Source of the DNA: a virus
Lineage: Duplodnaviria; Caudoviricetes
Strand: one strand, 5' to 3'
Length of the DNA: 64,000 nucleotides
Virus record (IMG/VR): IMGVR_UViG_3300048837_000795
Location: 1,424 to 65,423 of that record
The first letter of the stretch is position 1. Every line of letters begins with the position of its first letter. A program made the position numbers and the translations under genes. Below the pieces are notes generated by a model, which did not search any database, was not told the DNA's origin, and saw only the letters and a list, made by a program, of their open reading frames with translations. Shown piece after piece: positions 1-61,680 of the stretch.

Positions 1-203
1 ATCACAGACAAAGTGTCTTTCCAAACGTTTGAAGGATCAAACATGTTATGAATGGTGTAAGAGTAAGAGAAAGGGGATTGACTAGTTTTTTCACTGCGGC
101 CCTGTTTCCATCCCATCACGTGCTCACCGATCAGGAGATTTAATTCCTTGCCGGCTTCGAGCTCTTCAACAAACATACGGTCAATAATCATGGCTGTTCT
201 CAT
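1..203 (-). CDS. Partial phage protein, ABA-sandwich/BC1872-like (runs off window start)
   Basis: Hand translation from ATG at 203: MRTAMIIDRMFVEELEAGKELNLLIGEHVMGW...FDPSNVW; EAGxELxxLxxExVMGW pattern typical of this family. Confidence 0.55.
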   Translation of the reverse strand, partial: MRTAMIIDRMFVEELEAGKELNLLIGEHVMGWKQGRSEKTSQSPFSYSYTIHNMFDPSNVWKDTLSV

Positions 204-229
204 ATAGACTTACTTTAGTAATGCTATAC
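202..229. repeat. 11-6-11 inverted-repeat site (copy 1 of 9)
   Basis: ATATAGACTTA CTTTAG TAATGCTATAC. Confidence 0.65.
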
Positions 230-234
230 AATCG

Positions 235-375
235 CCTGTGAGGCATATAGAATGACGTTGCCTTGCCTGAATAGCCCTGTGAGGGCTCCTGTGCGGCCCT
301 GTGCGGCCCTGTGCGGTTCCTGTGCGGTGCCTTTGAGGCCTATGAGAGCCTTAGAGGGCTACGTGCCCTGCGCGG
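235..375 (+). repeat. Array of about 10 CCTGTG(A/C)GG direct repeats, ~10-bp period in the core
   Basis: Copies at 235, 276, 288, 298, 308, 319; degenerate copies at 330, 339, 349, 367. Confidence 0.85.
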
Positions 376-1648
376 AAATACCCGCCAATTTCTCCAGTTC
401 GGGTGTAGTTTTCCGCGAAGAAACTGCGTCAACCGGATGGGTCAGCCAGCCGCGGCGCTCCCACTCCTCGGCGGTGGTACGGATCTTCCATTCCGTCGCG
501 CGCCCGTCCATCATTTCAGCCAGCCGCTTGATCTTGAACTGCCCCCCCATCGTCTCAATCGCTAAGCGCACCAGCGTGCATTCAATCTCGGTCAGCGCGT
601 TGACCGGCGCGGTCCCGCCGCCCAACCAATCCGACTCGGCCTGCGGGTCGAGCATGTAGGTCTGGATGGGCTGGTATTGGCCGGCCAGGCGCAAGACGGC
701 CCTGCCTGGTCGCTGGATCTGGTTGGCATACAGGCCCCACGAGCGGTTATCCAGCGTTACCGACCCGCCGGTATCGTCGGCCATGCGGAAACATAACCGG
801 GTCTGGAGCATGCCCGACAGCTCGCGGCTCACATCTTTCGCGCGCCAGTTGTGCGCGGCCAAAACCATGTGCAGGCCCCACTTGCGCCCGCGCCTGGCCA
901 CCTCACCCAGTAGCCGCACGATCTCCTTATCACCCATGACCGTGTTGGCCTCATCGACCAGCAGCAGCACGCGCTTGAGTTTGTCGGGCGAGACCAAGTT
1001 ATAGGCATCCATATCATCCGGCGGCATGTCACCAATTGAGCGATACAGCGCCGCGCGCCGGGCAATCTCCGACTCCAGCAGCTCCAATAACTCTAAAACA
1101 TCGTCGCCCGAGGATGCGATGGGCCGGCCGGTGACCCGCTCCCAGGCCGCGCCAAACGTATGACCATCCGGGTCGGCAAGGTAAATATCCCAGCCGTGCA
1201 CCCGCGCCGTGTGGGAAAGCACGCGCAGGAAGGTGCTTTTACCCGAGCCTTGTCCGCCGCCGATCAGCATGTTTTGCCATGCCCGCGCGTCGGCCATGAT
1301 CGGCCCGCGCATACCTATGCCGAAGTCAAAGTTTTCCGGGCCGGGGAATGCCGGCAGTTGTGCGCTGTCTGGCAGCGCCGGTTTATTCGACAGTAGCACG
1401 GCGTATCTCAGGCCGGTCGAATTGGAAATGACTACAGGCCGGCCGCCCAGCGCGGTCGAAAGTGAGTGAACCAGGTCCTGGGTGATGTACGGCGCGAGTT
1501 TTGGCAGCGCGGGTAATACCCCGATCAGCCAGGCGTAGCCGTCGCGCTCGACCAGCAGCCAGCGTTCGGGCGTCTGTAGCTGGCGCGCCGTCATCATCTC
1601 GACAATCAGAGTCTTGACTGCCTGCGCCTGAGCCAGATAACTTTTCAC
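359..1648 (-). CDS. FtsK/SpoIIIE (TraB-like) DNA translocase ATPase with probable C-terminal winged helix
   Basis: Walker A GGGQGSGKST, Walker B LLLVDEA, ARRGRKWGLHMVLA, RLCFR, PGRA motifs of the FtsK family. Confidence 0.85.
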   Translation of the reverse strand: MKSYLAQAQAVKTLIVEMMTARQLQTPERWLLVERDGYAWLIGVLPALPKLAPYITQDLVHSLSTALGGRPVVISNSTGLRYAVLLSNKPALPDSAQLPAFPGPENFDFGIGMRGPIMADARAWQNMLIGGGQGSGKSTFLRVLSHTARVHGWDIYLADPDGHTFGAAWERVTGRPIASSGDDVLELLELLESEIARRAALYRSIGDMPPDDMDAYNLVSPDKLKRVLLLVDEANTVMGDKEIVRLLGEVARRGRKWGLHMVLAAHNWRAKDVSRELSGMLQTRLCFRMADDTGGSVTLDNRSWGLYANQIQRPGRAVLRLAGQYQPIQTYMLDPQAESDWLGGGTAPVNALTEIECTLVRLAIETMGGQFKIKRLAEMMDGRATEWKIRTTAEEWERRGWLTHPVDAVSSRKTTPELEKLAGISAQGT

Positions 1649-2607
1649 TTTCCACCCCCTTGCATCAACAGTTTGCGCTCAACCTCATCCAGAATATTAC
1701 CCATCGCCGGGTCGCCCGGGTCGATAATCTCAATCTCGCCGGCAGTGCGCGGCGCATCTAGTGCCGGCGGGGGAAAGCTGGAAGGCGTGGCCCGCAGCAG
1801 GTCAATCTTCTGTTCGTTTTGCTTGACCAGCAGCTGGACGGCCGGCGGGGTCTGCTCGGGCGCGGCGGTATTCATCACCGGGTTGACCTGCAAATTGGGG
1901 TTGATCGCCAGGCCGTTTTTGATTTGCACCGGGTATTTGCCCTGGGCATTGGCGTGCACCTCTTTGTACTCGGTCTTTTTCCACACCCAGCGGTAAGCCA
2001 GCAGCCCCAGCAGGCCCAGTAAAAAGGTGGGAATCGCCCATTTGGTCACGGCCCAAACGGTGACCATCGTTTTGCGCGATTGGATATCCAGGGCGCGTTT
2101 CTCCTGCTCAGCGTCGTTTTTTTCGGCGATGGCTGTGGCGGCCTCGTTGGTCACCGCCATCTCCGCGCTGAAAACCGCCTGGGTCTGGGTGCTGGCAATG
2201 GCGGAGGCCTTCCTGCGCTCGATCGCGTTATCGGTGGACATGATCGAGCCTGCCGTGGCCGTTTGACCGTCGATGCGCAGCCGGTAAGCAAACTCGGTCG
2301 CCTGCGCGTACTCGCCGGCCACACGGAACGCCTCAGCCGTGTTGGCTGCGCGCCAGGTACTATCGGCGTCGGCTACCATGCGGGCAGCCACGGCAGTCTC
2401 TTCCAGCCCGCTGTATCCGCGGGGAGCTTCGAGCACAGGCAGGCGAAAGACCGCTGCGCTGGCAGGTTGGTTCGGATCGCCCAGCGCGGAAGAGGCAAAC
2501 GCCGCCATACCCAAACACACCAGGATGATCAGGAAGATCATTACCCCTGAGTTCCCGCCGGAAGACCTGGAACCACCGCCCTCGTGATGACCGCCGTATC
2601 CACTCAT
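1645..2607 (-). CDS. Two-TM membrane protein with Ala-rich helical region, translationally coupled to the FtsK-like gene
   Basis: ATG 2607 with GGAGG; hydrophobic segments VMIFLIILVCLGMAAFAS and WAIPTFLLGLLGLLAYRW; 4-nt overlap with next gene. Confidence 0.7.
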   Translation of the reverse strand: MSGYGGHHEGGGSRSSGGNSGVMIFLIILVCLGMAAFASSALGDPNQPASAAVFRLPVLEAPRGYSGLEETAVAARMVADADSTWRAANTAEAFRVAGEYAQATEFAYRLRIDGQTATAGSIMSTDNAIERRKASAIASTQTQAVFSAEMAVTNEAATAIAEKNDAEQEKRALDIQSRKTMVTVWAVTKWAIPTFLLGLLGLLAYRWVWKKTEYKEVHANAQGKYPVQIKNGLAINPNLQVNPVMNTAAPEQTPPAVQLLVKQNEQKIDLLRATPSSFPPPALDAPRTAGEIEIIDPGDPAMGNILDEVERKLLMQGGGK

Positions 2608-2608
2608 G

Positions 2609-3526
2609 TTATCCCTCCCAAAAGGGGATGAACCCTTTAACCTGCTTTGCGATCGCCCGATAAACGTCTTTATCAATCAGTACGATCTTTACTTCCGGGT
2701 AGTACTTCGCCATTCGATCCAGCTTTGTTTTTGACTTTTGATCCATCCAACCTTTAACCTCGTGGTACTCGATCGACCCGTCGCAGCCGTAAACCTTGAA
2801 ATCTGGAAGATAGGATCTTGTACCGCGCTTTATAGCGTGAAACTCAAAAACATCCGGCTCGAATTCCCACTTTGCAATCTGACCAATGGAGATAAGCCAA
2901 TTCAGGTATCTTGCGTAATTGGCCTCCCAGGCGGAGCGAAAATACTTTCCGTCCAGGTCATCGCGCCTGCCCATTCTCCCGCTACTATATCCCTGGCGAA
3001 GCTTCCCCTCTTTTTGCATTGCAGTCATACGATCAGAGCATGCCTGTGATCTTTCGTCCGAATTCAATTTAGAATCAGGATTTGCCCATGCGAGAGTGAT
3101 ACCTTTTGACATCAATTCTCTGGTGCTTTCAGTATGCGTTTTCCCTCTGTGTCCTTTCGGATGCTCATGGGTTTTATGCCATTCCTTTACAAGCAAAGAC
3201 ATCTTTCTTATTTGACCCCGTGACTTCTTCCTGTTCTGGTTGGTCAACCCGAGCTCCCGGGCCTTGCGAGAAATATTTGCCTTATCACGTGAAAACAAAA
3301 CTTCAAGCGCATCCAGATTTATTTCATCTCCCTGGTAGTGTTCACGCAGTATCTCGATCTCTTTGTCGGTCCAGAATTCATGGCGCTTTCTCCAACCCAT
3401 CTTCCAGCATAGGTTTCTTACAGATGTTTCGTTGCGTCCAAGAACTGAAGCAATGTCTTTATACTCCAGGGTCTGGTAATTCAGTTTGACCAGCTCGATC
3501 TCGTGATCCTGCCATTTTCCCATCAT
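2609..3526 (-). CDS. PD-(D/E)XK endonuclease with N-terminal HTH/NUMOD-like repeats (possible homing endonuclease)
   Basis: RSAWEANYA..WEFEP..YLPDF..YHEVKG; W-x-x-x-E-x-x-x-L repeats; more AT-rich than neighbours. Confidence 0.7.
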   Translation of the reverse strand: MMGKWQDHEIELVKLNYQTLEYKDIASVLGRNETSVRNLCWKMGWRKRHEFWTDKEIEILREHYQGDEINLDALEVLFSRDKANISRKARELGLTNQNRKKSRGQIRKMSLLVKEWHKTHEHPKGHRGKTHTESTRELMSKGITLAWANPDSKLNSDERSQACSDRMTAMQKEGKLRQGYSSGRMGRRDDLDGKYFRSAWEANYARYLNWLISIGQIAKWEFEPDVFEFHAIKRGTRSYLPDFKVYGCDGSIEYHEVKGWMDQKSKTKLDRMAKYYPEVKIVLIDKDVYRAIAKQVKGFIPFWEG

Positions 3527-3684
3527 ACCGCGCTCCCTCCATCCTGGCATACTTGCGCGCCGGGCCACAGCTGCGAATACAATTCCTGCCTGCGCTGGAT
3601 CTCCGCGGCAAGCTGGCGCTCAGCCGGCCAGTCACCGCGCAGAATTGCTAAACAGCGCTCGATTTCCAGCCGGGTGTCAGTCAT
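3523..3684 (-). CDS. Small hypothetical protein
   Basis: MTDTRLEIERC... overlaps both neighbours. Confidence 0.45.
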   Translation of the reverse strand: MTDTRLEIERCLAILRGDWPAERQLAAEIQRRQELYSQLWPGAQVCQDGGSAV

Positions 3685-4633
3685 TGTAAAGGCCTCGCTG
3701 AGCGCGGGCGCCCAAAATCTCGCGCACGTCGCAGCCCTCGACTTCAACCGGCACCCCGCCCGAAATGCGAGAGGCCAAATAGGCCATATCCTCGGGCAGC
3801 GAGTCGGGGTTGTTTTTCATGGCCAGCACGGTCAGCAATCCGCTCGATTCGTAGCGGGTATCCAGCAGGCGGTGCATTGTCTGCATCACCCACGGCGTGT
3901 GGGCAATCTGGTCAAGCTCATCGATGGCCAGCACCGGGATCTGCCGCGTCTCGCGGATCGCCGCCTCGACCGCAATGCCGCCACGGTCATCGCCGAACAT
4001 ATCGCGGATCTCGGCGATCAGGTCGGAGGCGTTGACGTAGCGCGAGCGCACGCCAATCCCCCGAAAGCCGTTGACCAGGCTTTTGAGCAAATGGCTCTTT
4101 CCCCGGCCAGGCTGGCCCCAGAACGTGACGAAGCCCTCGGGCCGCTCATTCATACCCAGCATGTTGCGCGCAGCGCGCTGCGCGAGCTGCTTTTCCGCAA
4201 AATCGCCGGTCACACGGAACTGCTCCAGTGAGACAGACAAATCATCGCCTTTTAAACCGCAGTTTGCGCGGAGGTAATCCTTCCACGCCTCACCGGTGCA
4301 CCGCGGGCAGGGGCTGGAATGCGTCTCGCCAGTGTACCAGCCTGGGACGGGTGTCGGCAGCCACTTGACCTTACCGCCATTGGGTTGGGCGTAGGGGCCG
4401 GAGACGGACACAAAGACAAACATCAGCCGCGCCCCGCCGCAGTTACGGCAGAGATTGGCAACGGCATTATCAGGCGCGTCGACCAGCAGCTTTGTCGCCT
4501 TCGGGTTATCCAGCAGCGCAACCAGGTCAGCCGGCCATATTCTCCCGTCAGGGATAGGCCGCTCGGGCGGAAGCGATTCTAATTCCGGCGCGTCTATCTG
4601 AATATCGCTGAGTATATTCTGAATAGTGGTCAT
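3677..4633 (-). CDS. DnaC/IstB-like ATPase (helicase loader)
   Basis: CxxC pairs, Walker A GQPGRGKS, Walker B LAIDEL, LLDTRY; follows the initiator gene. Confidence 0.85.
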   Translation of the reverse strand: MTTIQNILSDIQIDAPELESLPPERPIPDGRIWPADLVALLDNPKATKLLVDAPDNAVANLCRNCGGARLMFVFVSVSGPYAQPNGGKVKWLPTPVPGWYTGETHSSPCPRCTGEAWKDYLRANCGLKGDDLSVSLEQFRVTGDFAEKQLAQRAARNMLGMNERPEGFVTFWGQPGRGKSHLLKSLVNGFRGIGVRSRYVNASDLIAEIRDMFGDDRGGIAVEAAIRETRQIPVLAIDELDQIAHTPWVMQTMHRLLDTRYESSGLLTVLAMKNNPDSLPEDMAYLASRISGGVPVEVEGCDVREILGARAQRGLYND

Positions 4634-5724
4634 GCTTTCACCCCTTTCCCGCGCAGGTAAATCTGATAATCGTTCTCAGTCACCGTCTCGCCGAATAAGT
4701 CCAGGTTCTTACGCTGGAAAACCTCGAAAGAGTCCACGTCAGTGAACGCCGGCTTACTGGCGCGCAGCTCCGCAGCCTTAGCGGTCACATAGTACGTCAG
4801 CGACCCGGGCCGGCCTGGCATAAACCGTTTGTCAATCTGCTGGCCTTTCCAATCCTCGTGGTATGCCCGTAAAGCATTTAGGCCGAATTCGCCGCAAGCC
4901 TCACGCAGATCGCGGGCCTCGTTGATCCATAGGCCATGCTGCCCGGCCTTTTTTCCAGCCTTTGCCGGCGGAACAAGTTTCCACAAACGGCAGACCTCCC
5001 GAATGATCTCGCGGGTATCTTCCGGATAAGAGGAAAAATCGATCTCCCCTTTCCGCGCCTCGAACTTCTGCAAGGCTGCCAACGCGCCGGCGTTTTTGAC
5101 CGTTCCGTTTCCGTTGGAGGCAGCGGGCGCGTCAGCGCCCAAATCTTTGTTAGTCTCTGAAGTACCCTCTGTAGGAATAGTCTCTGTTAATGGTTCTCGC
5201 CGTTTGGCGAGAAGGTTTTCGCCGTTTGGCAATTCCCTTTTCGCCGTTTGGCGAGAACCACCGTTTTCGCCGTTTGGCGAAAAGGGAATTTTGGCATTCG
5301 CGAGCTTCGCTTCCGGGGTGTATGGATTGATAAATGGTTTAGCCGCCCACTCATTCCACAAAGCCAAAAAGCGATCTTCGACCAGCCGCAGGTGCAAGGT
5401 TGGGTCGCGATTGAACTGGAAGAGTTTCTTTTCGATCAGCCCGGTTTTTACCAAAATCGCCAGGATCCGGTCTGATTGATCAGGGGTAATCCTGACCCGC
5501 TCATACCATTCGTAACGGCGGGCAGCGATCCAGAACTTACCCTCGTGTTCCACGCGCAGCTTTGAGCCGCCCTCTTTGGTTGGGAGATACCAATAGACAA
5601 TCTCGCTCAACACCAGGCCGGCCAGTACATCCCCGCCGGCCATATCCACGTAGATCTTTTTGAAATCAATCGTGTCGCGGGAAGCGCGCTCCCACTGGAA
5701 GAACCGATCCATCGATGACATCAC
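4630..5724 (-). CDS. Phage replication initiator (N-terminal winged HTH)
   Basis: AGLVLSEIVYWY...WIA...W wHTH pattern, low-complexity linker, adjacent to DnaC-like gene. Confidence 0.75.
   Translation of the reverse strand: MMSSMDRFFQWERASRDTIDFKKIYVDMAGGDVLAGLVLSEIVYWYLPTKEGGSKLRVEHEGKFWIAARRYEWYERVRITPDQSDRILAILVKTGLIEKKLFQFNRDPTLHLRLVEDRFLALWNEWAAKPFINPYTPEAKLANAKIPFSPNGENGGSRQTAKRELPNGENLLAKRREPLTETIPTEGTSETNKDLGADAPAASNGNGTVKNAGALAALQKFEARKGEIDFSSYPEDTREIIREVCRLWKLVPPAKAGKKAGQHGLWINEARDLREACGEFGLNALRAYHEDWKGQQIDKRFMPGRPGSLTYYVTAKAAELRASKPAFTDVDSFEVFQRKNLDLFGETVTENDYQIYLRGKGVKA
5196..5283 (+). repeat. TTTTCGCCGTTTGGC repeats inside the initiator gene (iteron-like, candidate origin)
   Basis: Four copies of TCGCCGTTTGGC near 5197, 5219, 5241 and 5267; lambdoid origins lie within the initiator gene. 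Confidence 0.6.
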
Positions 5725-6405: not shown

Positions 6406-6764
6406 GGCCGCTCTTCCATCTGCCGGGCCCGCAGCGCCTCGCGCTCTTCTGCCTCGCGGGCGCGCAAACCGCGCTCGTGCCAGCTATCCAGCGCGTATAG
6501 AGCGCCAACCGTCAGGCCGGCGGAAACCACAATTGCCCATAGCGCTAAGGCCGCTGTGTAGGGTGATATATAACCAATTTCAAATTGGCACCAAATTAGT
6601 AGGGCTGTATAAGGCAGCAAAATCCCTAACAGTCCTAGAATATAGTTATAGATAGGATGGAGTCGATCACGACCAACAAGATAACGCCACGGCCAGTAAT
6701 GCTCCCCAACCATGACCACCGCGGCAAAAATCGCAGCCAACATTACGGAAAATAGAATACTCAT
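6402..6764 (-). CDS. Three-TM membrane protein
   Basis: ATG 6764 with GGAGG; three hydrophobic helices. Confidence 0.6.
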   Translation of the reverse strand: MSILFSVMLAAIFAAVVMVGEHYWPWRYLVGRDRLHPIYNYILGLLGILLPYTALLIWCQFEIGYISPYTAALALWAIVVSAGLTVGALYALDSWHERGLRAREAEEREALRARQMEERP

Positions 6765-6822
6765 GGAAGACCTCCCAGAAACGAATATGTCACGGGAGCG
6801 GATCCTCGCTATTATAAAAAGC

Positions 6823-7692
6823 ATGCTCAACGACGTGGACCGCTTCCTGAACGAAACAGACTACAGCCCAGCCACCGCGGTATCCTACGGGTACCATCTC
6901 AAACGGTTGGCGGACTGGTTAGATGCTGTTTGCATCCCCCCTGAGCATCTCAATGCGTCCTTACTGCGCACCTATCTCGGGTCCCACGGCTGGCGCAACA
7001 ACTGTCAGCGGCTGGCCGGCAATGCCGCGAAAAGTTTTTTGAAGTGGCGTTACGGCGCGACTCATGCGGCGCTGAGCCTCAAGCTGCCAAAGGACGACTC
7101 TGCCCCCGGCCGCGCATTGGACCAGGTCGAGGTCGACCGGCTGCTGGCTGTGTTCGACACGACCAAAGCCGTCGGCTGGCGCGACCTGGCCATGCTGGCG
7201 TTGATGGTTGAGTCAGGCATCCGCGAGGCAGAAGTCTGCCGTCTGGAGCTGGATTACCTCGACCTGCGCAAGATGCGCTTCGATGTGCTGGCCAAAGGAC
7301 GCGACTGGCGAGAGGGCGTCTTTTCGCCCATTACCGCGCAGTACCTGGATATCTGGCTGAATGCCAGAAAGGAGTTTGCCTATCCACCAAAATGCCCTTA
7401 TGTGTTTGTGAGTGTGAATGGCAAGACCAAAGGGCGTCGTATGACGCCCGGCGGTCTGCGGGCCAATTTTCGTAAAATGGGAGTACGGGCAGAATTGGGG
7501 AAATTCTCTCCGCACGTCATGCGCCGTACAATGGCAACGCTATTGATTTTAAACGGCGCGCCTACCCGGCTGGTGCAGGAGCTCGGAGGCTGGAGTGATA
7601 TCCAGATGGTCGAGCGCTACACGCGCACGATCAATCCTCAACAAATCGAGCAGTATTCCCCGCTCTGCAATCCTATAGGGTTATCAAAGTAA
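6823..7692 (+). CDS. int: Tyrosine recombinase/integrase (XerC/D-like; start uncertain, ORF open from 6712)
   Basis: RDLAML..SGIREAEV (R), AKG (K), SPHVMRR (HxxR), LGGWSD (W), MVERY (Y). Confidence 0.92.
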   Translation: MLNDVDRFLNETDYSPATAVSYGYHLKRLADWLDAVCIPPEHLNASLLRTYLGSHGWRNNCQRLAGNAAKSFLKWRYGATHAALSLKLPKDDSAPGRALDQVEVDRLLAVFDTTKAVGWRDLAMLALMVESGIREAEVCRLELDYLDLRKMRFDVLAKGRDWREGVFSPITAQYLDIWLNARKEFAYPPKCPYVFVSVNGKTKGRRMTPGGLRANFRKMGVRAELGKFSPHVMRRTMATLLILNGAPTRLVQELGGWSDIQMVERYTRTINPQQIEQYSPLCNPIGLSK

Positions 7693-40535: not shown

Positions 40536-42920
40536 TTATGCCTTTACTGCCCTGGCCACGACCTGCTCGATGCGTGCCTCAAGCACGGAGAAATCGAGGG
40601 CGCTGTTGATGTTATTGCCGCCAAAGTTGAAGGCGTTGTTGATGGTGGTCGAGCGCGTCATCGCCGGGGTGGAAGGCATGGAGCTGAATGAGCCTGCACT
40701 GCCGCGCACACCCGCGCCCTGACTGCCCGCGCCTGGGGATTTGGCATTGTGTACCACCACGCCGTCTACCAGGTAGGTATGGTCGGGATGGTCGACTTCG
40801 ATGTTATAGATATCAAACTCGCCCGGGTAGGCTTCTACAAACGCGACAAAGGCCGGCGTTTTGGAAACCAGCATCTCGCCGGGCGCAAGATCGCATGCTT
40901 CGACCCAGCCGCGGGCAAATGTTTTAAATCTGTGATTGGGTGAGCAGTGATACTGCCGTCCGTCATCGATATACACGCTGACCAGGTCGCTGCGCACCGA
41001 ATGGATGGTCTTTGCCACCAGCGCCGCGACTTGCTCGCCGTCATCGCGCATCAACAAAACTTTGTCGCCCACGCGCAGATCAGCAATCATGGTCATGCCG
41101 CCCGGCACATTGACCGGGGTTGACGCCACAAAGCAGGTGCCAGGCGGGTCAGATGCCGGGCCTGAGCGCGCGCCGTTGATCAGCCGCACCAAATTGTTAA
41201 ACCACTTGGTCAGGTCCTGGAGTTTGCCCGACGCCCACTCGAAGGCCCGCCCTAAAACGTCGCGGATGGTTTTGGCGGCGTCCTCGATCAGCGGGCCAAA
41301 TGTCTGCGAGAGCCAGTCGCCAAACCCGGTCAGCAGCGGGAACAGGGTCTCGCTGATAAACTTCCACACTTCGGTCAGCGCGGGTAACAGCGTCTCGGTC
41401 CAGACCTTACCCAATTCCTCCAGCGCCAGGCCAAACACCGCGCCGAGGAAATCGGTAAACGACTGGAAAAACGGGAACAGCACCGTGGTCATCCATGTCC
41501 ACACACGCTGGATTGCCGGCAGCAGCGTATCTTCCCAGAAGGCCCTGAGTGACTCGATAGCCAGCGGAATATTGGTCGCCAGCCAGTCCCACATGGTTTG
41601 GAAGAGCGGGAAGAGGTTGGCCTGGATCCACTCCCACACCGACATAATCGCCGGCAGTAATGTCTCTTCCCAGAAGCCTTTCAAAATCTCGATGGCCGCC
41701 GGCACGTTGACCGCCAGCCAGTTCCACAGCTGCTGTAAGGCCGGCCTTACCGTACCCTCCCAGAACTGGGTCAGGGCGTCGCGCATGCCCAAAAAGTTGT
41801 TTTCCCAGGCGTAGGCCAGCGCGGCCACGACCGCGGCGACCAGCAGCAGCACGCCGATCAGCGGCGCGGCAGCGGTGACCATCGCTACGATCGCCGGGAT
41901 GGCCGCGGCGATGGTGGTATAGGCCCATACTGCCACAGCCACGGCAATGGCCGCCAGCACCCCCACAATAATAGGCTTATTGGCCATCAGCCAGTTGAAT
42001 CCGGCCTGGAGGATATTAAAGGCGATGGGCATGGCGGTAATAATCACGTTGGCAATGCGCGAGATAAGGCCGGCGATTTGCGGCAATATCTCGCGCACCT
42101 TCGGCAGCGCTTTGCGGGCCAGCTCCATAAAACGTTTGGCCAGGTCCATCACTGCCGGCATAAGTTCTTTGCCAAGCTGCACAAACAGGCCCTGCCCGGC
42201 CATCTTCAAAAACTCAAGCTGTTTCTGCAGCTCGATCGACCCGTCAACAGTATCCCCGCTCAGCGACAGGCCCAATTCTTTGGCCATCGCGTCAGCCTCG
42301 GCAAAGCCGTCGGTGGTCAGCGCGCCTAACGTGTCGGTCAAATCTTTGCCCGACTTGCCAAACAGCTCAACCATCAGCTTGGTCTTTTCCAGCCCGTCCG
42401 GCATGAGCGCCAGTTTATCGGCCACGGCGGTGATGATATCGGTCGACGGTAGTATGTTGCCGTTCGCGTCGCGGAAAGCAATGCCCAGCTTATCCATTAC
42501 CGCCCCGGTTGCGCCCAGCTCGCCCTTGCTGTCGACCAGCCCGCGGGTAAGGAAGGCCATCTGCCCGGTAATGCCCTCGACATTGCCGCCCACGCGCTGG
42601 ATTGCCACGGCCAGCGCCGACGACTCTTCGGCCGACGTGCCCAGCACATCGCCAATGCTGTCGACCGTGCCGGCCCAGCCCATCATGGCCGGGATCGCCG
42701 CGAGCGCCGCGCCGGCCAGCGTGCCGACCGCCGCGGCGGCAGCGCCTAACGCCCCCATCACCACCGCCCCACCCACGCGGGACAAACCTTCGGTCATACG
42801 CGCGCCCGCGCTCTCAGTCTCATCCTTGCCGGTCTTTGTCGCGGCTAAGTATTCCCGCATACCAGCCAGGAAGTCCGCGTTTTTGAAAATAGCCTCAAGG
42901 CCGATCTGCTCTAAACCCAT
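40536..42920 (-). CDS. Tape measure protein with a C-terminal Hint domain
   Basis: LFGKSG tape-measure motif, W-periodic amphipathic repeats, TM region; CF...VHN Hint domain at 40746-41135. Confidence 0.9.
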   Translation of the reverse strand: MGLEQIGLEAIFKNADFLAGMREYLAATKTGKDETESAGARMTEGLSRVGGAVVMGALGAAAAAVGTLAGAALAAIPAMMGWAGTVDSIGDVLGTSAEESSALAVAIQRVGGNVEGITGQMAFLTRGLVDSKGELGATGAVMDKLGIAFRDANGNILPSTDIITAVADKLALMPDGLEKTKLMVELFGKSGKDLTDTLGALTTDGFAEADAMAKELGLSLSGDTVDGSIELQKQLEFLKMAGQGLFVQLGKELMPAVMDLAKRFMELARKALPKVREILPQIAGLISRIANVIITAMPIAFNILQAGFNWLMANKPIIVGVLAAIAVAVAVWAYTTIAAAIPAIVAMVTAAAPLIGVLLLVAAVVAALAYAWENNFLGMRDALTQFWEGTVRPALQQLWNWLAVNVPAAIEILKGFWEETLLPAIMSVWEWIQANLFPLFQTMWDWLATNIPLAIESLRAFWEDTLLPAIQRVWTWMTTVLFPFFQSFTDFLGAVFGLALEELGKVWTETLLPALTEVWKFISETLFPLLTGFGDWLSQTFGPLIEDAAKTIRDVLGRAFEWASGKLQDLTKWFNNLVRLINGARSGPASDPPGTCFVASTPVNVPGGMTMIADLRVGDKVLLMRDDGEQVAALVAKTIHSVRSDLVSVYIDDGRQYHCSPNHRFKTFARGWVEACDLAPGEMLVSKTPAFVAFVEAYPGEFDIYNIEVDHPDHTYLVDGVVVHNAKSPGAGSQGAGVRGSAGSFSSMPSTPAMTRSTTINNAFNFGGNNINSALDFSVLEARIEQVVARAVKA

Positions 42921-60159: not shown

Positions 60160-61680
60160 TTATGCCTCACGAACACTGATGCGCTCTCTGCTCGCCCATT
60201 CTTCTTCAATCAGCAGCGGCCCGACAATAGCCTGGATAACCGAGTCGCCGTAGTCTGTAGACTTCCCGCGCCGGCGTCTGATCAAATCCTTCGACTCGAT
60301 CAGGATCTGGCCGCTGGATGTGTAGGTGTAGCGCGGCGCGACTAAATCGTTGAATAACTCCTGGTTCGGCGGCAAACACACCTCGAAACCCGAGCCGGGT
60401 TCCAGCATTTCCCGCAGCAGCCACCATGCACAGGCCCGCCAGTTAGCGAAGCCGTACAAATTCGACTTATCGCGCAGCTCGGTCGAAGCCGCGGCCTTGA
60501 ACGGGTACACCCGCATTCCCAATTCTGCGGCCCGGTGGTAAACGCCGGCGCCAATGCCGATCACGTCGATATAGCCGGCTGCCTGACGCTGGCTATCCAG
60601 CAATGCGGTGAGCTGCCCAACGACCTCCATCGTGACCTGGTCAGGATTGGAAATTACCAGCTCTTCAACACTTTTGACTTTGACCCCGTCGTAGGTCGGT
60701 GCGAATGTGGATTTATCGCTCTGCGCCCCACCCCCGCCGACGTCGTTGCCAACCGCAGTTAGAACGCCGGGAAAGCCCTCTTTCTCCCACTGCCGCCAGC
60801 GCAGAATCGCATCACGGACGTGCGTCGCCGGGATGACCTGGTAATCGGCATCCCGCGCGCCGGCCATCCAATCGCCGTGCAGTAGCTGCGAGCGGAAAGG
60901 CTCAGGCATGGCGTTGAGGTTGCGCCGGTATTGGTCGTCGTTGGCCAGGAATGGGTTATCTTCCAGCTTGGCCGGGATGAAGGTGCGGCTGACCCCGTCA
61001 GGATCATCCGCCGTGGTCTCGATCTCGGTCTTGCCGTCATCGGCCCGTTTGTAGTAGCGCAGCTCGCCGGCCTTCGCCGGCCGCGGATGGGCCGGGTCAA
61101 GCCATGCTGCCCAGCGCCGGAACACCCACCCGCCCGGGTCGGGGTTCGCGCAGGCCAGCATGCGCACGCGCTGGTAGCGTTTATCCGTGCGCGCGCGAGA
61201 AACCATGTACTCGTACTGCAACTGCGAGAACTGCGGCAGTTCATCGAAGCCAATAAAATCATACGCCGCGGACTGGTGACCAAACACCGAGTCGTCGCGT
61301 TCTAAGTGGCTGAACCAGATTATTCGATTGTCAAGGTGCCATGTATATTTCGATCCGTTGAAACCATCACTTGTGCCGCGGTTGTAAAACTCTATTGATC
61401 TTGGGATAACCGACTGTTCCAGGTCTTTGTACGTGCGCCGGAAGATGACCGCCCGGCGGTGCTCGAACCGCGCGATACCGAGCAGCAAATCGCTCTTGCC
61501 TCCGCCGGCTGCCCCGCCGTACAAAGTCTCAAACGCTCTCGTCAGCAGCGCCATCCACTGCGGCTGACTCTGCGGAGCCCAGGGGATTCGCCTCTCCTGT
61601 ACCGCCTGTAGATATGAGAGCTCCGAGGGCTTGAGCGAGTGCAGATACTGTTCGATCATGCTGCTCGTCGTTAAGCTCAA
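60160..61680 (-). CDS. terL: Terminase large subunit
   Basis: LYGGAAGGGKS, IFRRTY, IGFDEL, ANP, FIPAKLEDNP, GDW, DVG, KSTDYGD; TTG start with GGAGG. Confidence 0.93.
   Translation of the reverse strand: MSLTTSSMIEQYLHSLKPSELSYLQAVQERRIPWAPQSQPQWMALLTRAFETLYGGAAGGGKSDLLLGIARFEHRRAVIFRRTYKDLEQSVIPRSIEFYNRGTSDGFNGSKYTWHLDNRIIWFSHLERDDSVFGHQSAAYDFIGFDELPQFSQLQYEYMVSRARTDKRYQRVRMLACANPDPGGWVFRRWAAWLDPAHPRPAKAGELRYYKRADDGKTEIETTADDPDGVSRTFIPAKLEDNPFLANDDQYRRNLNAMPEPFRSQLLHGDWMAGARDADYQVIPATHVRDAILRWRQWEKEGFPGVLTAVGNDVGGGGAQSDKSTFAPTYDGVKVKSVEELVISNPDQVTMEVVGQLTALLDSQRQAAGYIDVIGIGAGVYHRAAELGMRVYPFKAAASTELRDKSNLYGFANWRACAWWLLREMLEPGSGFEVCLPPNQELFNDLVAPRYTYTSSGQILIESKDLIRRRRGKSTDYGDSVIQAIVGPLLIEEEWASRERISVREA

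Follow-up and report, generated by a model that had tools for sequence, protein, structure and literature searches.

A phage-borne FtsK/TcpA-type ATPase with a membrane partner and a direct-repeat array at the 3' end of its gene: a possible split counterpart of the Streptomyces TraB/clt system in phages of Chloroflexota

The window analysed here is a stretch of 64,000 nucleotides, bases 1424-65423 of a linear IMG/VR virus record of 65,423 bases (IMGVR_UViG_3300048837_000795; CheckV completeness 83%), and the element, judged by its genes, is a temperate tailed phage. On the minus strand of the left end, a gene for a membrane protein (1645-2607; 320 amino acids (aa) from the ATG at 2607, with two predicted transmembrane (TM) segments) is followed by the gene for a soluble FtsK/TcpA-type ATPase (359-1648; 429 aa, GTG start). 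The C-terminal residues 347-426 of the ATPase, encoded at 371-610, form a predicted winged-helix domain. An array of ten direct-repeat units (235-375) covers the 3' end of the ATPase gene, and the next gene 3' of the array begins at 3-203. It is a minus-strand open reading frame (ORF) of 134 aa in the full contig and is without a family match in Pfam and PHROG.

The first-pass annotation of the window had assigned the ATPase to the FtsK family, and this assignment is borne out. The protein matches the Pfam family FtsK_SpoIIIE (PF01580; E 2.4e-9, 37.4 bits against a cut-off of 24) and phrog_1358, 'FtsK/SpoIIIE-like' (1.2e-21), and the Walker A (G136-K137-S138) and Walker B (D232-E233) motifs are intact and invariant in 41 aligned relatives. 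In a profile comparison with PDB sequences, EccC (3.6e-31), TcpA (9e-26) and FtsK (2.4e-18) were matched. The full-length AlphaFold2 (AF2) model has a pLDDT of 89.7, and Foldseek places it closest to TcpA of the plasmid pCW3 (5.5e-22), followed by the FtsK motor (1.9e-16) and then EccC. None of the NCBIfam models reaches its cut-off with the ATPase, which is therefore treated as an unnamed branch of the FtsK/TcpA/EccC group. TrwB_AAD_bind scores 21.6 bits (cut-off 20.5) and TraD_Ftype is far below its cut-off. A type VII secretion ATPase (EccC/EssC) was rejected because the protein has a single ATPase domain, against two or three in tandem in EccC/EssC, and misses the equivalog cut-offs (TIGR03925, 42 bits vs 346.6; TIGR03928, 33 vs 778). 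A recognised anti-phage defence system is not indicated: PADLOC gives just mad8 (1.4e-13), over the P-loop core, and no match for the partner proteins. The terminase noted in the first annotation is encoded at 60160-61680 (Terminase_6N, 5.4e-7), so that the ATPase is not the packaging motor. The family is essentially absent from cultured phages and from plasmids: there are 4 weak matches in INPHARED (24-32% identity over ~45% of the ATPase; Bacillus phage 'FtsK-like' genes) and, by tblastn, 116 weak TcpA-type matches among the 72,556 plasmids of PLSDB, led by Clostridium perfringens at ~26% identity.

A winged helix-turn-helix (wHTH) at the C-terminus, which had been suspected from the sequence, is well modelled. 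In the full-length model it consists of helices at 354-367, 373-379 and 386-399 and a strand at 412-414. Modelled alone, the last 80 residues reach a pLDDT of 85.8 and match winged-helix folds of the MarR/DtxR/TubR type, and also F93, with Z up to 9.0. The centromere binders TubR and AspA are among these matches, which are generic. From the model, residues 386-399 are proposed as the recognition helix and residues ~404-414 as the wing. A sequence profile of the domain found no significant match in the PDB. The same kind of profile search recovered 343 representative protein clusters at E ≤ 0.001, of which 159 at E ≤ 1e-10. Apart from fragments, nearly all members have a length of 430-500 aa and carry the domain C-terminally.

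The ATPase itself is without a hydrophobic or TM segment, and the anchor is encoded by the separate upstream gene. Two hydrophobic segments in the upstream protein, and the overlap of its TGA stop with the GTG start of the ATPase gene (GTGA), agree with the coupled 2-TM partner of the earlier annotation. The protein has an N-terminal hydrophobic anchor, an extracytoplasmic segment, the second TM segment and a cytoplasmic tail of ~110 aa ending in ILDEVERKLLMQ. In the relatives, ORF clustering gives a conserved gene order of c2 (~150 aa, 2-TM), c1 (~360 aa) and ATPase. The c1 protein has a lipobox-type N-terminus, a Thr/Ala/Gln-rich outer segment, one TM segment and a cytoplasmic tail ending in PVLDExExxLLEE. 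The partner in the window belongs to c1, as found with hhalign against a 31-sequence c1 alignment (97.9%, E 4.8e-13, 170 columns covering TM2 and tail). For the window partner, c1 and c2, no match was found in Pfam, PHROG, NCBIfam or PADLOC.

A natural fusion links the two proteins directly. In P0236 (699 aa), the motor and winged helix (hhalign 100%, E 1.1e-41) are preceded in the same chain by a lipobox, ectodomain and TM segment of c1 type (96.8%, E 2.5e-10); the c1-like part replaces the first ~90 residues of the ATPase, which results in a TraB-like domain order. A word search found no longer fused forms, and the profile search with the winged helix found this one fusion. Structure prediction with the TM protein, which the first annotation had suggested for the ATPase hexamer, gave a weak pass for the ATPase with the c1 tail (residues 208-320): the score is 0.58 against 0.02 for the best control, with a partner pLDDT of at least 47 and at least 41% of contacts shared between runs. 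Among solved complexes, 58 of 80 attain the mark for such scores, as do 2 of 110 mismatched pairs, and scores of 0.60 or below include just 7 of the 80 solved complexes, yet both mismatches that passed. Taken together, sequence and model support the view that the ATPase is held at the membrane by its c1 partner.

The ten units of the array match CCT[GTA][TCA]G[ACG]G[GA] and start at 235, 276, 288, 298, 308, 319, 330, 339, 349 and 367, with spacings of 41, 12, 10, 10, 11, 11, 9, 10 and 18. This agrees with the ~10 CCTGTGMGG repeats of ~10-bp period noticed earlier; TRF reports a period of 10 with 5.1 copies. The exact word CCTGTGMGG occurs 7 times in the 64 kb (1.44 expected; 0 of 100 shuffles reached 7), and six of the seven copies lie within 235-327 (93 bp). 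On the gene strand, the units read CCGCACAGG, CCTCACAGG or degenerate forms. They comprise a core block (276-357), an isolated unit (235-243) and one unit (367-375) inside the last ATPase codons; with the stop codon at 359-361, nine units lie downstream of the gene. The isolated unit is flanked by a direct repeat (201-259; strand unspecified in the repeat search), CATATAGA, with copies at 201-216 and 244-259 that are 81% identical. An '11-6-11 site' that had been read next to the array was not confirmed: at 203-228 there is only TATAGACTT..AATGCTATA, a weak inverted repeat with 7 of 9 positions complementary when read by eye, and the repeat search (seed 6) did not report it.

Of the 6 occurrences of CGCACAGG in the 65-kb contig, 4 fall within the array, and in the complete relative G005 all five copies of GTCAAACC are in the array. 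Confined to the array in this way, the 8-mer is not a dispersed polar guide like KOPS. The word CGCACAGG alone is not diagnostic of the locus, since three tandem units of it were found in 32 IMG/VR stretches with an ATPase homolog in none of them; many of these stretches are 9-nt coding repeats or repeat blocks of other phages. In the IMG/VR loci L075-L077, L083, L086, L089, L091, L094 and L097, 3-4 tandem copies of GGGGTCGCACAGG or TATCGCACAGG are followed by a palindromic half-unit. These viral contigs are unrelated and have no homolog of the window ATPase nearby, and the blocks look like the repeat site of another protein on the same core word. When the array was compared with PLSDB by blastn, 23 weak records were obtained (E 0.4-5), of which 17 come from Streptomyces. 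Two were inspected. In one, the match follows a protein of 495 aa that is not related to the ATPase (BLASTP E 1.4), and in the other it falls in an unannotated stretch; the records were treated as chance matches in GC-rich DNA.

To characterize homologous loci, relatives of the ATPase were collected. A word-based search found 107, the nearest being P0002 (88% identity), P0003 (69%) and P0004-P0010 (51-55%), and a scan of IMG/VR with the window ATPase alone gave no close relatives. Profile-guided scans, which used a peptide pattern not fitted by the window's own ATPase, yielded 66 loci (7 from IMG/VR, 8 from species-representative genomes and 51 from metagenomes). The DNA after the gene end was compared in the 60 of these in which the match reached the gene end, and 48 distinct loci were examined. 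Nearly all of the 60 have 8-mer units that run head to tail on the gene strand. The comparisons thus cover relatives 30-46% identical to the window ATPase and leave out P0002-P0010.

An array at the ATPase 3' end, on the strand of the gene, is present at 47 of the 48 distinct loci, as anticipated by the first-pass annotation. At least four exact copies of a 6-mer occur within 120 nt at the gene end in 40 loci, and in 34 of those 40 no other 120-nt segment of the locus attains that count. Seven further loci have 3-5 copies within one mismatch of a locus-specific 8-mer. The exception is L046, in which no array was found. About 15 different 8-mers occur among the loci. The array words include CGCACAGG, CGTACAGG, CTCACAGG, CTCACACG, CTCGCACG, CGCACACG, (C)AGATAGG, TCCAAACC, TCCCAAC and CACCAAC, and a CAAAC class consists of CTCAAAC, GTCAAAC, GCCAAAC, CACAAAC, GACAAAC and ATCAAAC. 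Loci whose motifs differ repeatedly show one spacing pattern (8, 9, 10, ~20, 11 and 10). The ATPase ORFs of many relatives extend into the array, in frames that vary, which produces unrelated low-complexity tails. Since the period (8-12 nt) is not a multiple of three and the tails are unrelated, the constraint is on the DNA and not on a protein product; a coding origin of the repeats, which had been named as a possible refutation, was not found.

Two further observations concern the arrays of relatives. In eleven loci of the CAAAC class (L005, L006, L007, L012, L014, L015, L044, L045, L050, L055 and L064), the near-palindromic sequence CCCAnAT(A/G)TGG (CCATATATGG in L045 and L064) occurs twice, ~30-110 nt past the end of the ATPase match, once in the 20-nt gap between half-arrays and once directly behind the second of them, and might be a further cis element. 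In L036 (5180-5220), and in this locus only, a forward CGTACAGG array is followed by three units of opposite orientation (CCTGTACG), so that the repeats converge.

The array motif follows the C-terminal domain of the ATPase and not its motor. In partial Mantel tests, motif and C-domain are correlated when the motor is controlled for (r = 0.59; 0 of 2000 permutations as high), and motif and motor are not when the C-domain is controlled for (r = 0.02), in agreement with the co-variation of arrays and wHTH that the annotation had proposed to look for. The C-domain, with 73 of 419 alignment columns, holds 15 of the top 25 mutual-information columns for the motif; the most informative belong to the wing (405, 408-410) and to helix three (387, 396). 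The motor-domain tree is not congruent with the motif classes. GTCAAAC is paired with the helix start EER(E/Q)AR at three separate places of this tree and GCCAAAC with GHREAR at two, and CTCAAAC is paired with xxWxAR. L014 and L015 are sisters in the motor tree and differ in both motif and helix. Phylogenetically independent pairs were concordant in 2/2, 3/3, 2/2 and 2/2 cases. Only three proteins are conserved around the array, and a DNA-binding domain is found in the ATPase alone. On these sequence comparisons, the array is quite probably the recognition site of the ATPase itself.

The relatives originate from IMG/VR phages, Chloroflexota metagenome-assembled genomes (MAGs) and metagenomes. 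All 9 homologs with an organism name belong to Anaerolineae or other Chloroflexota, and all 8 loci from species-representative genomes are in Chloroflexota MAGs. The host of the window phage is accordingly probably one of the filamentous Chloroflexota. The filamentous host of the first-pass annotation is thus upheld as far as the lineage of the relatives has filamentous cultured members, the host itself being deduced from those relatives. Filamentous Chloroflexota are described as having shared septa with septal channels (PMC7332563), which makes a septum-crossing role anatomically plausible.

A complete example of a carrier is G005, the record behind locus L007 (48,488 bases, CheckV 100%). 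It is a tailed temperate phage with terminase (phrog_38, 1.2e-79), portal, capsid-protease, tape measure, large serine integrase and primase. The order in G005 is c2, c1, ATPase, array and a multi-TM protein of the c7 family, with the primase nearby and the array ~12 kb from the terminase gene. The type of recombinase differs, G005 having the serine integrase and the window a tyrosine integrase/recombinase (6712-7692; phrog_1, 9.5e-30). The gene after the array varies among loci and is ParM-like, multi-TM c7/c21, c13, c10 or, in the window, the 134-aa ORF. Two genes beyond the array of the window phage, outside the window on the minus strand, contig bases 1-762 encode a multi-TM protein (3-4 TM) of the c7 family (c7/c21/c41; hmmsearch, E 1e-39), the family that trails the array in several relatives. 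Its C-terminus resembles a helix-turn-helix and it has no Pfam or PHROG family; it may be an additional component of the module.

Family, fold, synteny, array conservation, co-variation and one natural fusion are supported by observation; from them we infer hexamer formation, DNA binding, pumping and a biological role. The ATPase would form a hexamer like its solved relatives, would be tethered to the membrane by the bitopic protein encoded upstream, and would use its C-terminal winged helix to read the direct repeats of 8-9 bp with which its own gene ends. By analogy with TraB and clt of Streptomyces, the array would be a cis-acting loading site that marks the phage genome alone, and the ATPase, loaded on the array of its own genome, would pump that DNA at the membrane. 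As the module sits in a replication operon, it would act on freshly replicated phage DNA. The most likely job would be to move phage DNA across the septum between neighbouring cells of a filament, without virions. We see an even chance that the module is such a split, TraB/clt-like and membrane-tethered pump for double-stranded DNA (dsDNA) that addresses the phage's own DNA, and the statement that the complex pumps phage dsDNA across a membrane or septum is held with the same, evenly divided confidence. A purpose in cell-to-cell spread rather than segregation is suggested only tentatively. Equally tentative is the fuller picture, in which a septum-crossing pump would spread infection or lysogeny along the filament without virions and the winged helix and array would serve as an exchangeable specificity cassette.

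The analogy with TraB/clt has several sides. TraB (also named Tra, TraA or KilA), its clt locus and the Spd spread proteins are found on pSVH1, pIJ101, pJV1, pWTY27 and actinomycete integrative and conjugative elements (AICEs). Shared with the window are an FtsK-type ATPase that ends in a winged helix, direct repeats of 7-9 bp that adjoin or overlap the 3' end of its gene, repeat words that differ between elements, small membrane proteins alongside, and the setting of a filamentous host (a probable one here). According to PMC4447253, clt regions hold direct repeats of 8 bp that the cognate TraB recognises, and hexamers of TraB make up a channel in the membrane. PMC3583192 gives the clt of pWTY27 as 16 bp inside traA plus the adjacent 159 bp and reports, second-hand, nine 9-bp repeats CCGCACA[C/G][C/G] for pJV1 and G(C/A)AAC repeats for pIJ101. 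The window unit CCGCACAGG fits the pJV1 word, and the array class xCAAAC recalls that of pIJ101; both likenesses may reflect either common descent or chance. AICEs replicate before dsDNA transfer, such transfer being non-conservative (PMC3429521), and this fits the place of the module in a replication operon. The comparison, first drawn in the annotation of the window, held in the tests that were run, in that arrays are present at homologous loci, the motif tracks the winged helix and the repeats are not coding. The differences are that the motor here is soluble with its anchor in a separate gene (fused just in P0236), that the carrier is a tailed temperate phage in another phylum, that the nearest solved relative is TcpA, and that ParM/ParR genes often follow the array. 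By analogy, the module would be a split version of TraB/clt, carried by tailed phages whose hosts belong to a different phylum.

Among solved structures, TcpA of C. perfringens pCW3 (PDB 6o1w-6o1z) comes closest, and by sequence it ranks second in the PDB; it shares with the window ATPase a single ATPase domain and a similar size. TcpA has its own TM helices and acts on single-stranded DNA, together with a relaxase, an oriT and a type IV-like secretion apparatus. To our knowledge, a winged helix with a repeat array has not been described as a feature of TcpA. No relaxase, oriT or mating-pore apparatus was found among the 27 window ORFs to which the scan was confined. A phage with a tra gene needed for conjugal transfer is represented by the Streptomyces plasmid-phage pZL12, which differs in being an actinomycete plasmid-prophage with a TraB-type single-chain protein. 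Literature searches, with supplementary files outside their reach, found no description of such a module in Chloroflexota or in other phages, and in PMC8597652 FtsK/SpoIIIE is merely listed as an accessory gene of a Chloroflexus-associated viral contig.

Should the proposed reading be true, a whole family of tailed phages (343 reader-domain clusters) would have a second, particle-free way of genome movement, comparable in bacteria to what movement proteins do for plant viruses. The cassette of winged helix and array would stop co-resident phages from mobilising each other, and models of infection, lysogeny and gene flow would change for the filamentous bacteria that dominate anaerobic digesters and sediments. 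The one-protein principle of dsDNA transfer, so far one of actinomycete plasmids, would occur in another phylum as well, divided between two proteins. The ~15 combinations of motif and recognition helix found in nature are a data set for the DNA-recognition code of winged helices and a source of orthogonal DNA-addressing parts. Even as a segregation device, a phage-borne, sequence-addressed FtsK-type motor with a separate anchor is undescribed in the literature searched.

Several points weigh against a TraB/clt-like pump. The ATPase has no detectable sequence relationship to actinomycete TraB in the PLSDB searches: Streptomyces is not among the ten genera listed for the tblastn matches (4 more genera exist), and the C-domain alone gave one irrelevant match at E 3. 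Of the comparison with FtsK and TraB suggested by the first annotation, the FtsK side is supported by Pfam and fold, and the TraB side found no support in this tblastn search. FtsK gamma is not among the top fold matches of the winged helix, which are of the generic MarR/DtxR/TubR type. A profile search did not find c2 in the 65-kb contig of the window. The region coding for the winged helix adjoins the array, so that one recombination event moves both, and linkage alone could yield part of the co-variation between motif and C-domain. The binary motif and helix traits were set after viewing the data, and no single pair test can reach significance. The host is deduced solely from relatives that are 30-45% identical, and the family is rare: a sample of 401 genomes of Chloroflexota contained it in 6 (E ≤ 1e-40). 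Finally, a ParM-like gene directly follows the array in 19 ORFs of the fetched loci, often succeeded by a ParR-like gene, and such neighbours argue for segregation.

Segregation is the strongest of the other explanations, though an unlikely one. In it, the array would be centromere-like and the ATPase with its anchor a septal pump or tether, which would prevent closing septa from trapping replicating or episomal phage DNA or would distribute copies to the daughter cells, possibly together with ParM/ParR, and there would be no transfer to phage-free cells. The ParM-like gene (ALP_N 3.8e-12; phrog_691 'partition protein' 2.4e-27; NCBIfam ParM 3.3e-16, below cut-off) starts within ~40 bp of the array end (L016:6431-7432, L023:4695-4934 and equivalents elsewhere). 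It is followed by a basic ParR-like protein of 75-88 aa with an acidic DFDLDDF tail and also by a DnaA_N-containing protein. Jointly, the ParM-like and ParR-like genes resemble a type II partition cassette carried by phage-like Chloroflexota elements. Such systems (ParM, ParR, parC) share with many of the relatives ~10 direct repeats with a period of ~10-11 bp upstream of a parM-like gene. The parC of plasmid R1 is made of direct-repeat arrays that surround the par promoter, and the 7-12 direct repeats of ~10-bp period resemble it. Segregation is further favoured by the family namesakes FtsK and SpoIIIE, which are segregation pumps, by the generic fold matches to the centromere binders TubR and AspA, and by P0178, in which the winged helix reads into a weakly ParA/MinD-like segment (CbiA 8e-4, below cut-off).

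Other observations speak against segregation. Profiles of the ParM-like and ParR-like proteins, built from relatives, found nothing at E ≤ 1 in the 65-kb contig. The window contig and G005, as far as scanned, have integrases and no ParM/ParR, yet keep the module, which argues that it is more than a component of partitioning. The array is associated with the ATPase rather than with ParM, and the ParR-like protein does not follow the motif: in a small sample, its strand residues are near-identical in L027 and L022, whose motifs differ, and differ in L030 and L032, which share a motif. Moreover, DNA may be trapped anywhere along its length, and a pump there could not take its orientation from a single localised site. 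Some ParM loci have separate TGCGCA repeats between array and parM. These TGCGCA(N) repeats occur in both orientations before the ParM-like start in L011, L024, L025, L035 and L037 and are candidates for the real parC or operator of those loci.

The array could also be a regulatory or ParR-type site, an operator or promoter of the downstream genes that would be parC-like where parM follows, whose link to the ATPase is positional only. It is intergenic and upstream of the next gene in every locus, as the R1 repeats are located around the par promoter. Against this, the downstream gene changes between loci while array and ATPase remain together, the motif varies with the C-domain of the ATPase instead of the ParR-like protein, and a search of the minus strand in 1-3000 revealed neither a sigma-70-like promoter nor an intrinsic terminator. 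We consider a regulatory site improbable. A replication origin is rated a shade lower still. The repeats would then be iterons and the ATPase with its winged helix an initiator or helicase that binds the origin, like the Orc1/Cdc6 or DnaA proteins located beside the sites they bind. The module lies inside a replication operon in the window and beside a primase in G005, and its layout is that of Orc1 and ORB, in which an ATPase with a C-terminal winged helix adjoins its repeats. The fold, however, is that of an FtsK/TcpA pump and not of an AAA+ initiator or replicative helicase, the ATPase is coupled to a membrane protein and once fused to it, and the DnaD-like gene of the operon holds repeats of its own (22 bp x 4.1), a more usual origin.

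The second option of the first-pass annotation, a self-contained FtsK/Xer/dif-like system of dimer resolution, is disfavoured and must be regarded as very unlikely. Here the ATPase would load at the repeats, travel to a dif-like site nearby and activate the tyrosine recombinase of the phage at that site. Bacterial FtsK activates dimer resolution, and the recombinase gene is 5 kb away. FtsK/SpoIIIE with their KOPS/SRS sites also share with the window system the motor family, an 8-bp word and a C-terminal winged helix. They differ in that the window ATPase has no N-terminal TM domain in the same chain and is phage-encoded, that its word forms a single array and is not spread with strand polarity along the replicon, and that no similarity to the gamma domain was found among the top fold matches listed. 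The dif-like site is not supported by the repeat search, the variable class of recombinase argues against such a system, and the membrane partner would stay unexplained. Functionless repeats, produced by slippage or as low-complexity coding tails, could account for ATPase ORFs that run into the array and for CGCACAGG arrays without an ATPase, many of them 9-nt coding repeats, but are the least credible explanation of all given arrays at 47 of 48 loci of proteins 30-45% identical, a recurring spacing with a period that is not a multiple of three, and nine of ten window units past the stop codon.

The remaining genes at the left end precede the module on the minus strand, and together they read as a single operon in the order DnaD-like, DnaC-like, DUF1064, 2-TM protein, ATPase, array and 134-aa ORF. 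By Pfam and PHROG, they encode a DnaD-like, initiator-like protein (4630-5724), a DnaC-like loader (3677-4633) and a DUF1064/Holliday-junction-resolvase-like protein (2609-3568). The repeats within the DnaD-like gene, at 5192-5285, have the 22-bp unit GGTTTTCGCCGTTTGGCGAGAA and recall the iteron origin in lambda gene O; on this analogy, they are a likely replication origin. The DUF1064 nuclease domain of the 2609-3568 protein occupies residues 205-298 and is preceded by ~200 residues, which makes it an unusually long resolvase-like form. These N-terminal residues match phrog_323, 'transcriptional regulator, D5-like', and there is a weak HNH family match. ARAGORN found no tRNA genes in the window. 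Tape measure, tail-fibre-like proteins and a lysin are also encoded, according to the family scans of the ORFs, and the tape-measure-like protein at 40536-42920 contains a Hint/intein-like domain (PT-HINT 9.5e-5, below the Pfam cut-off).

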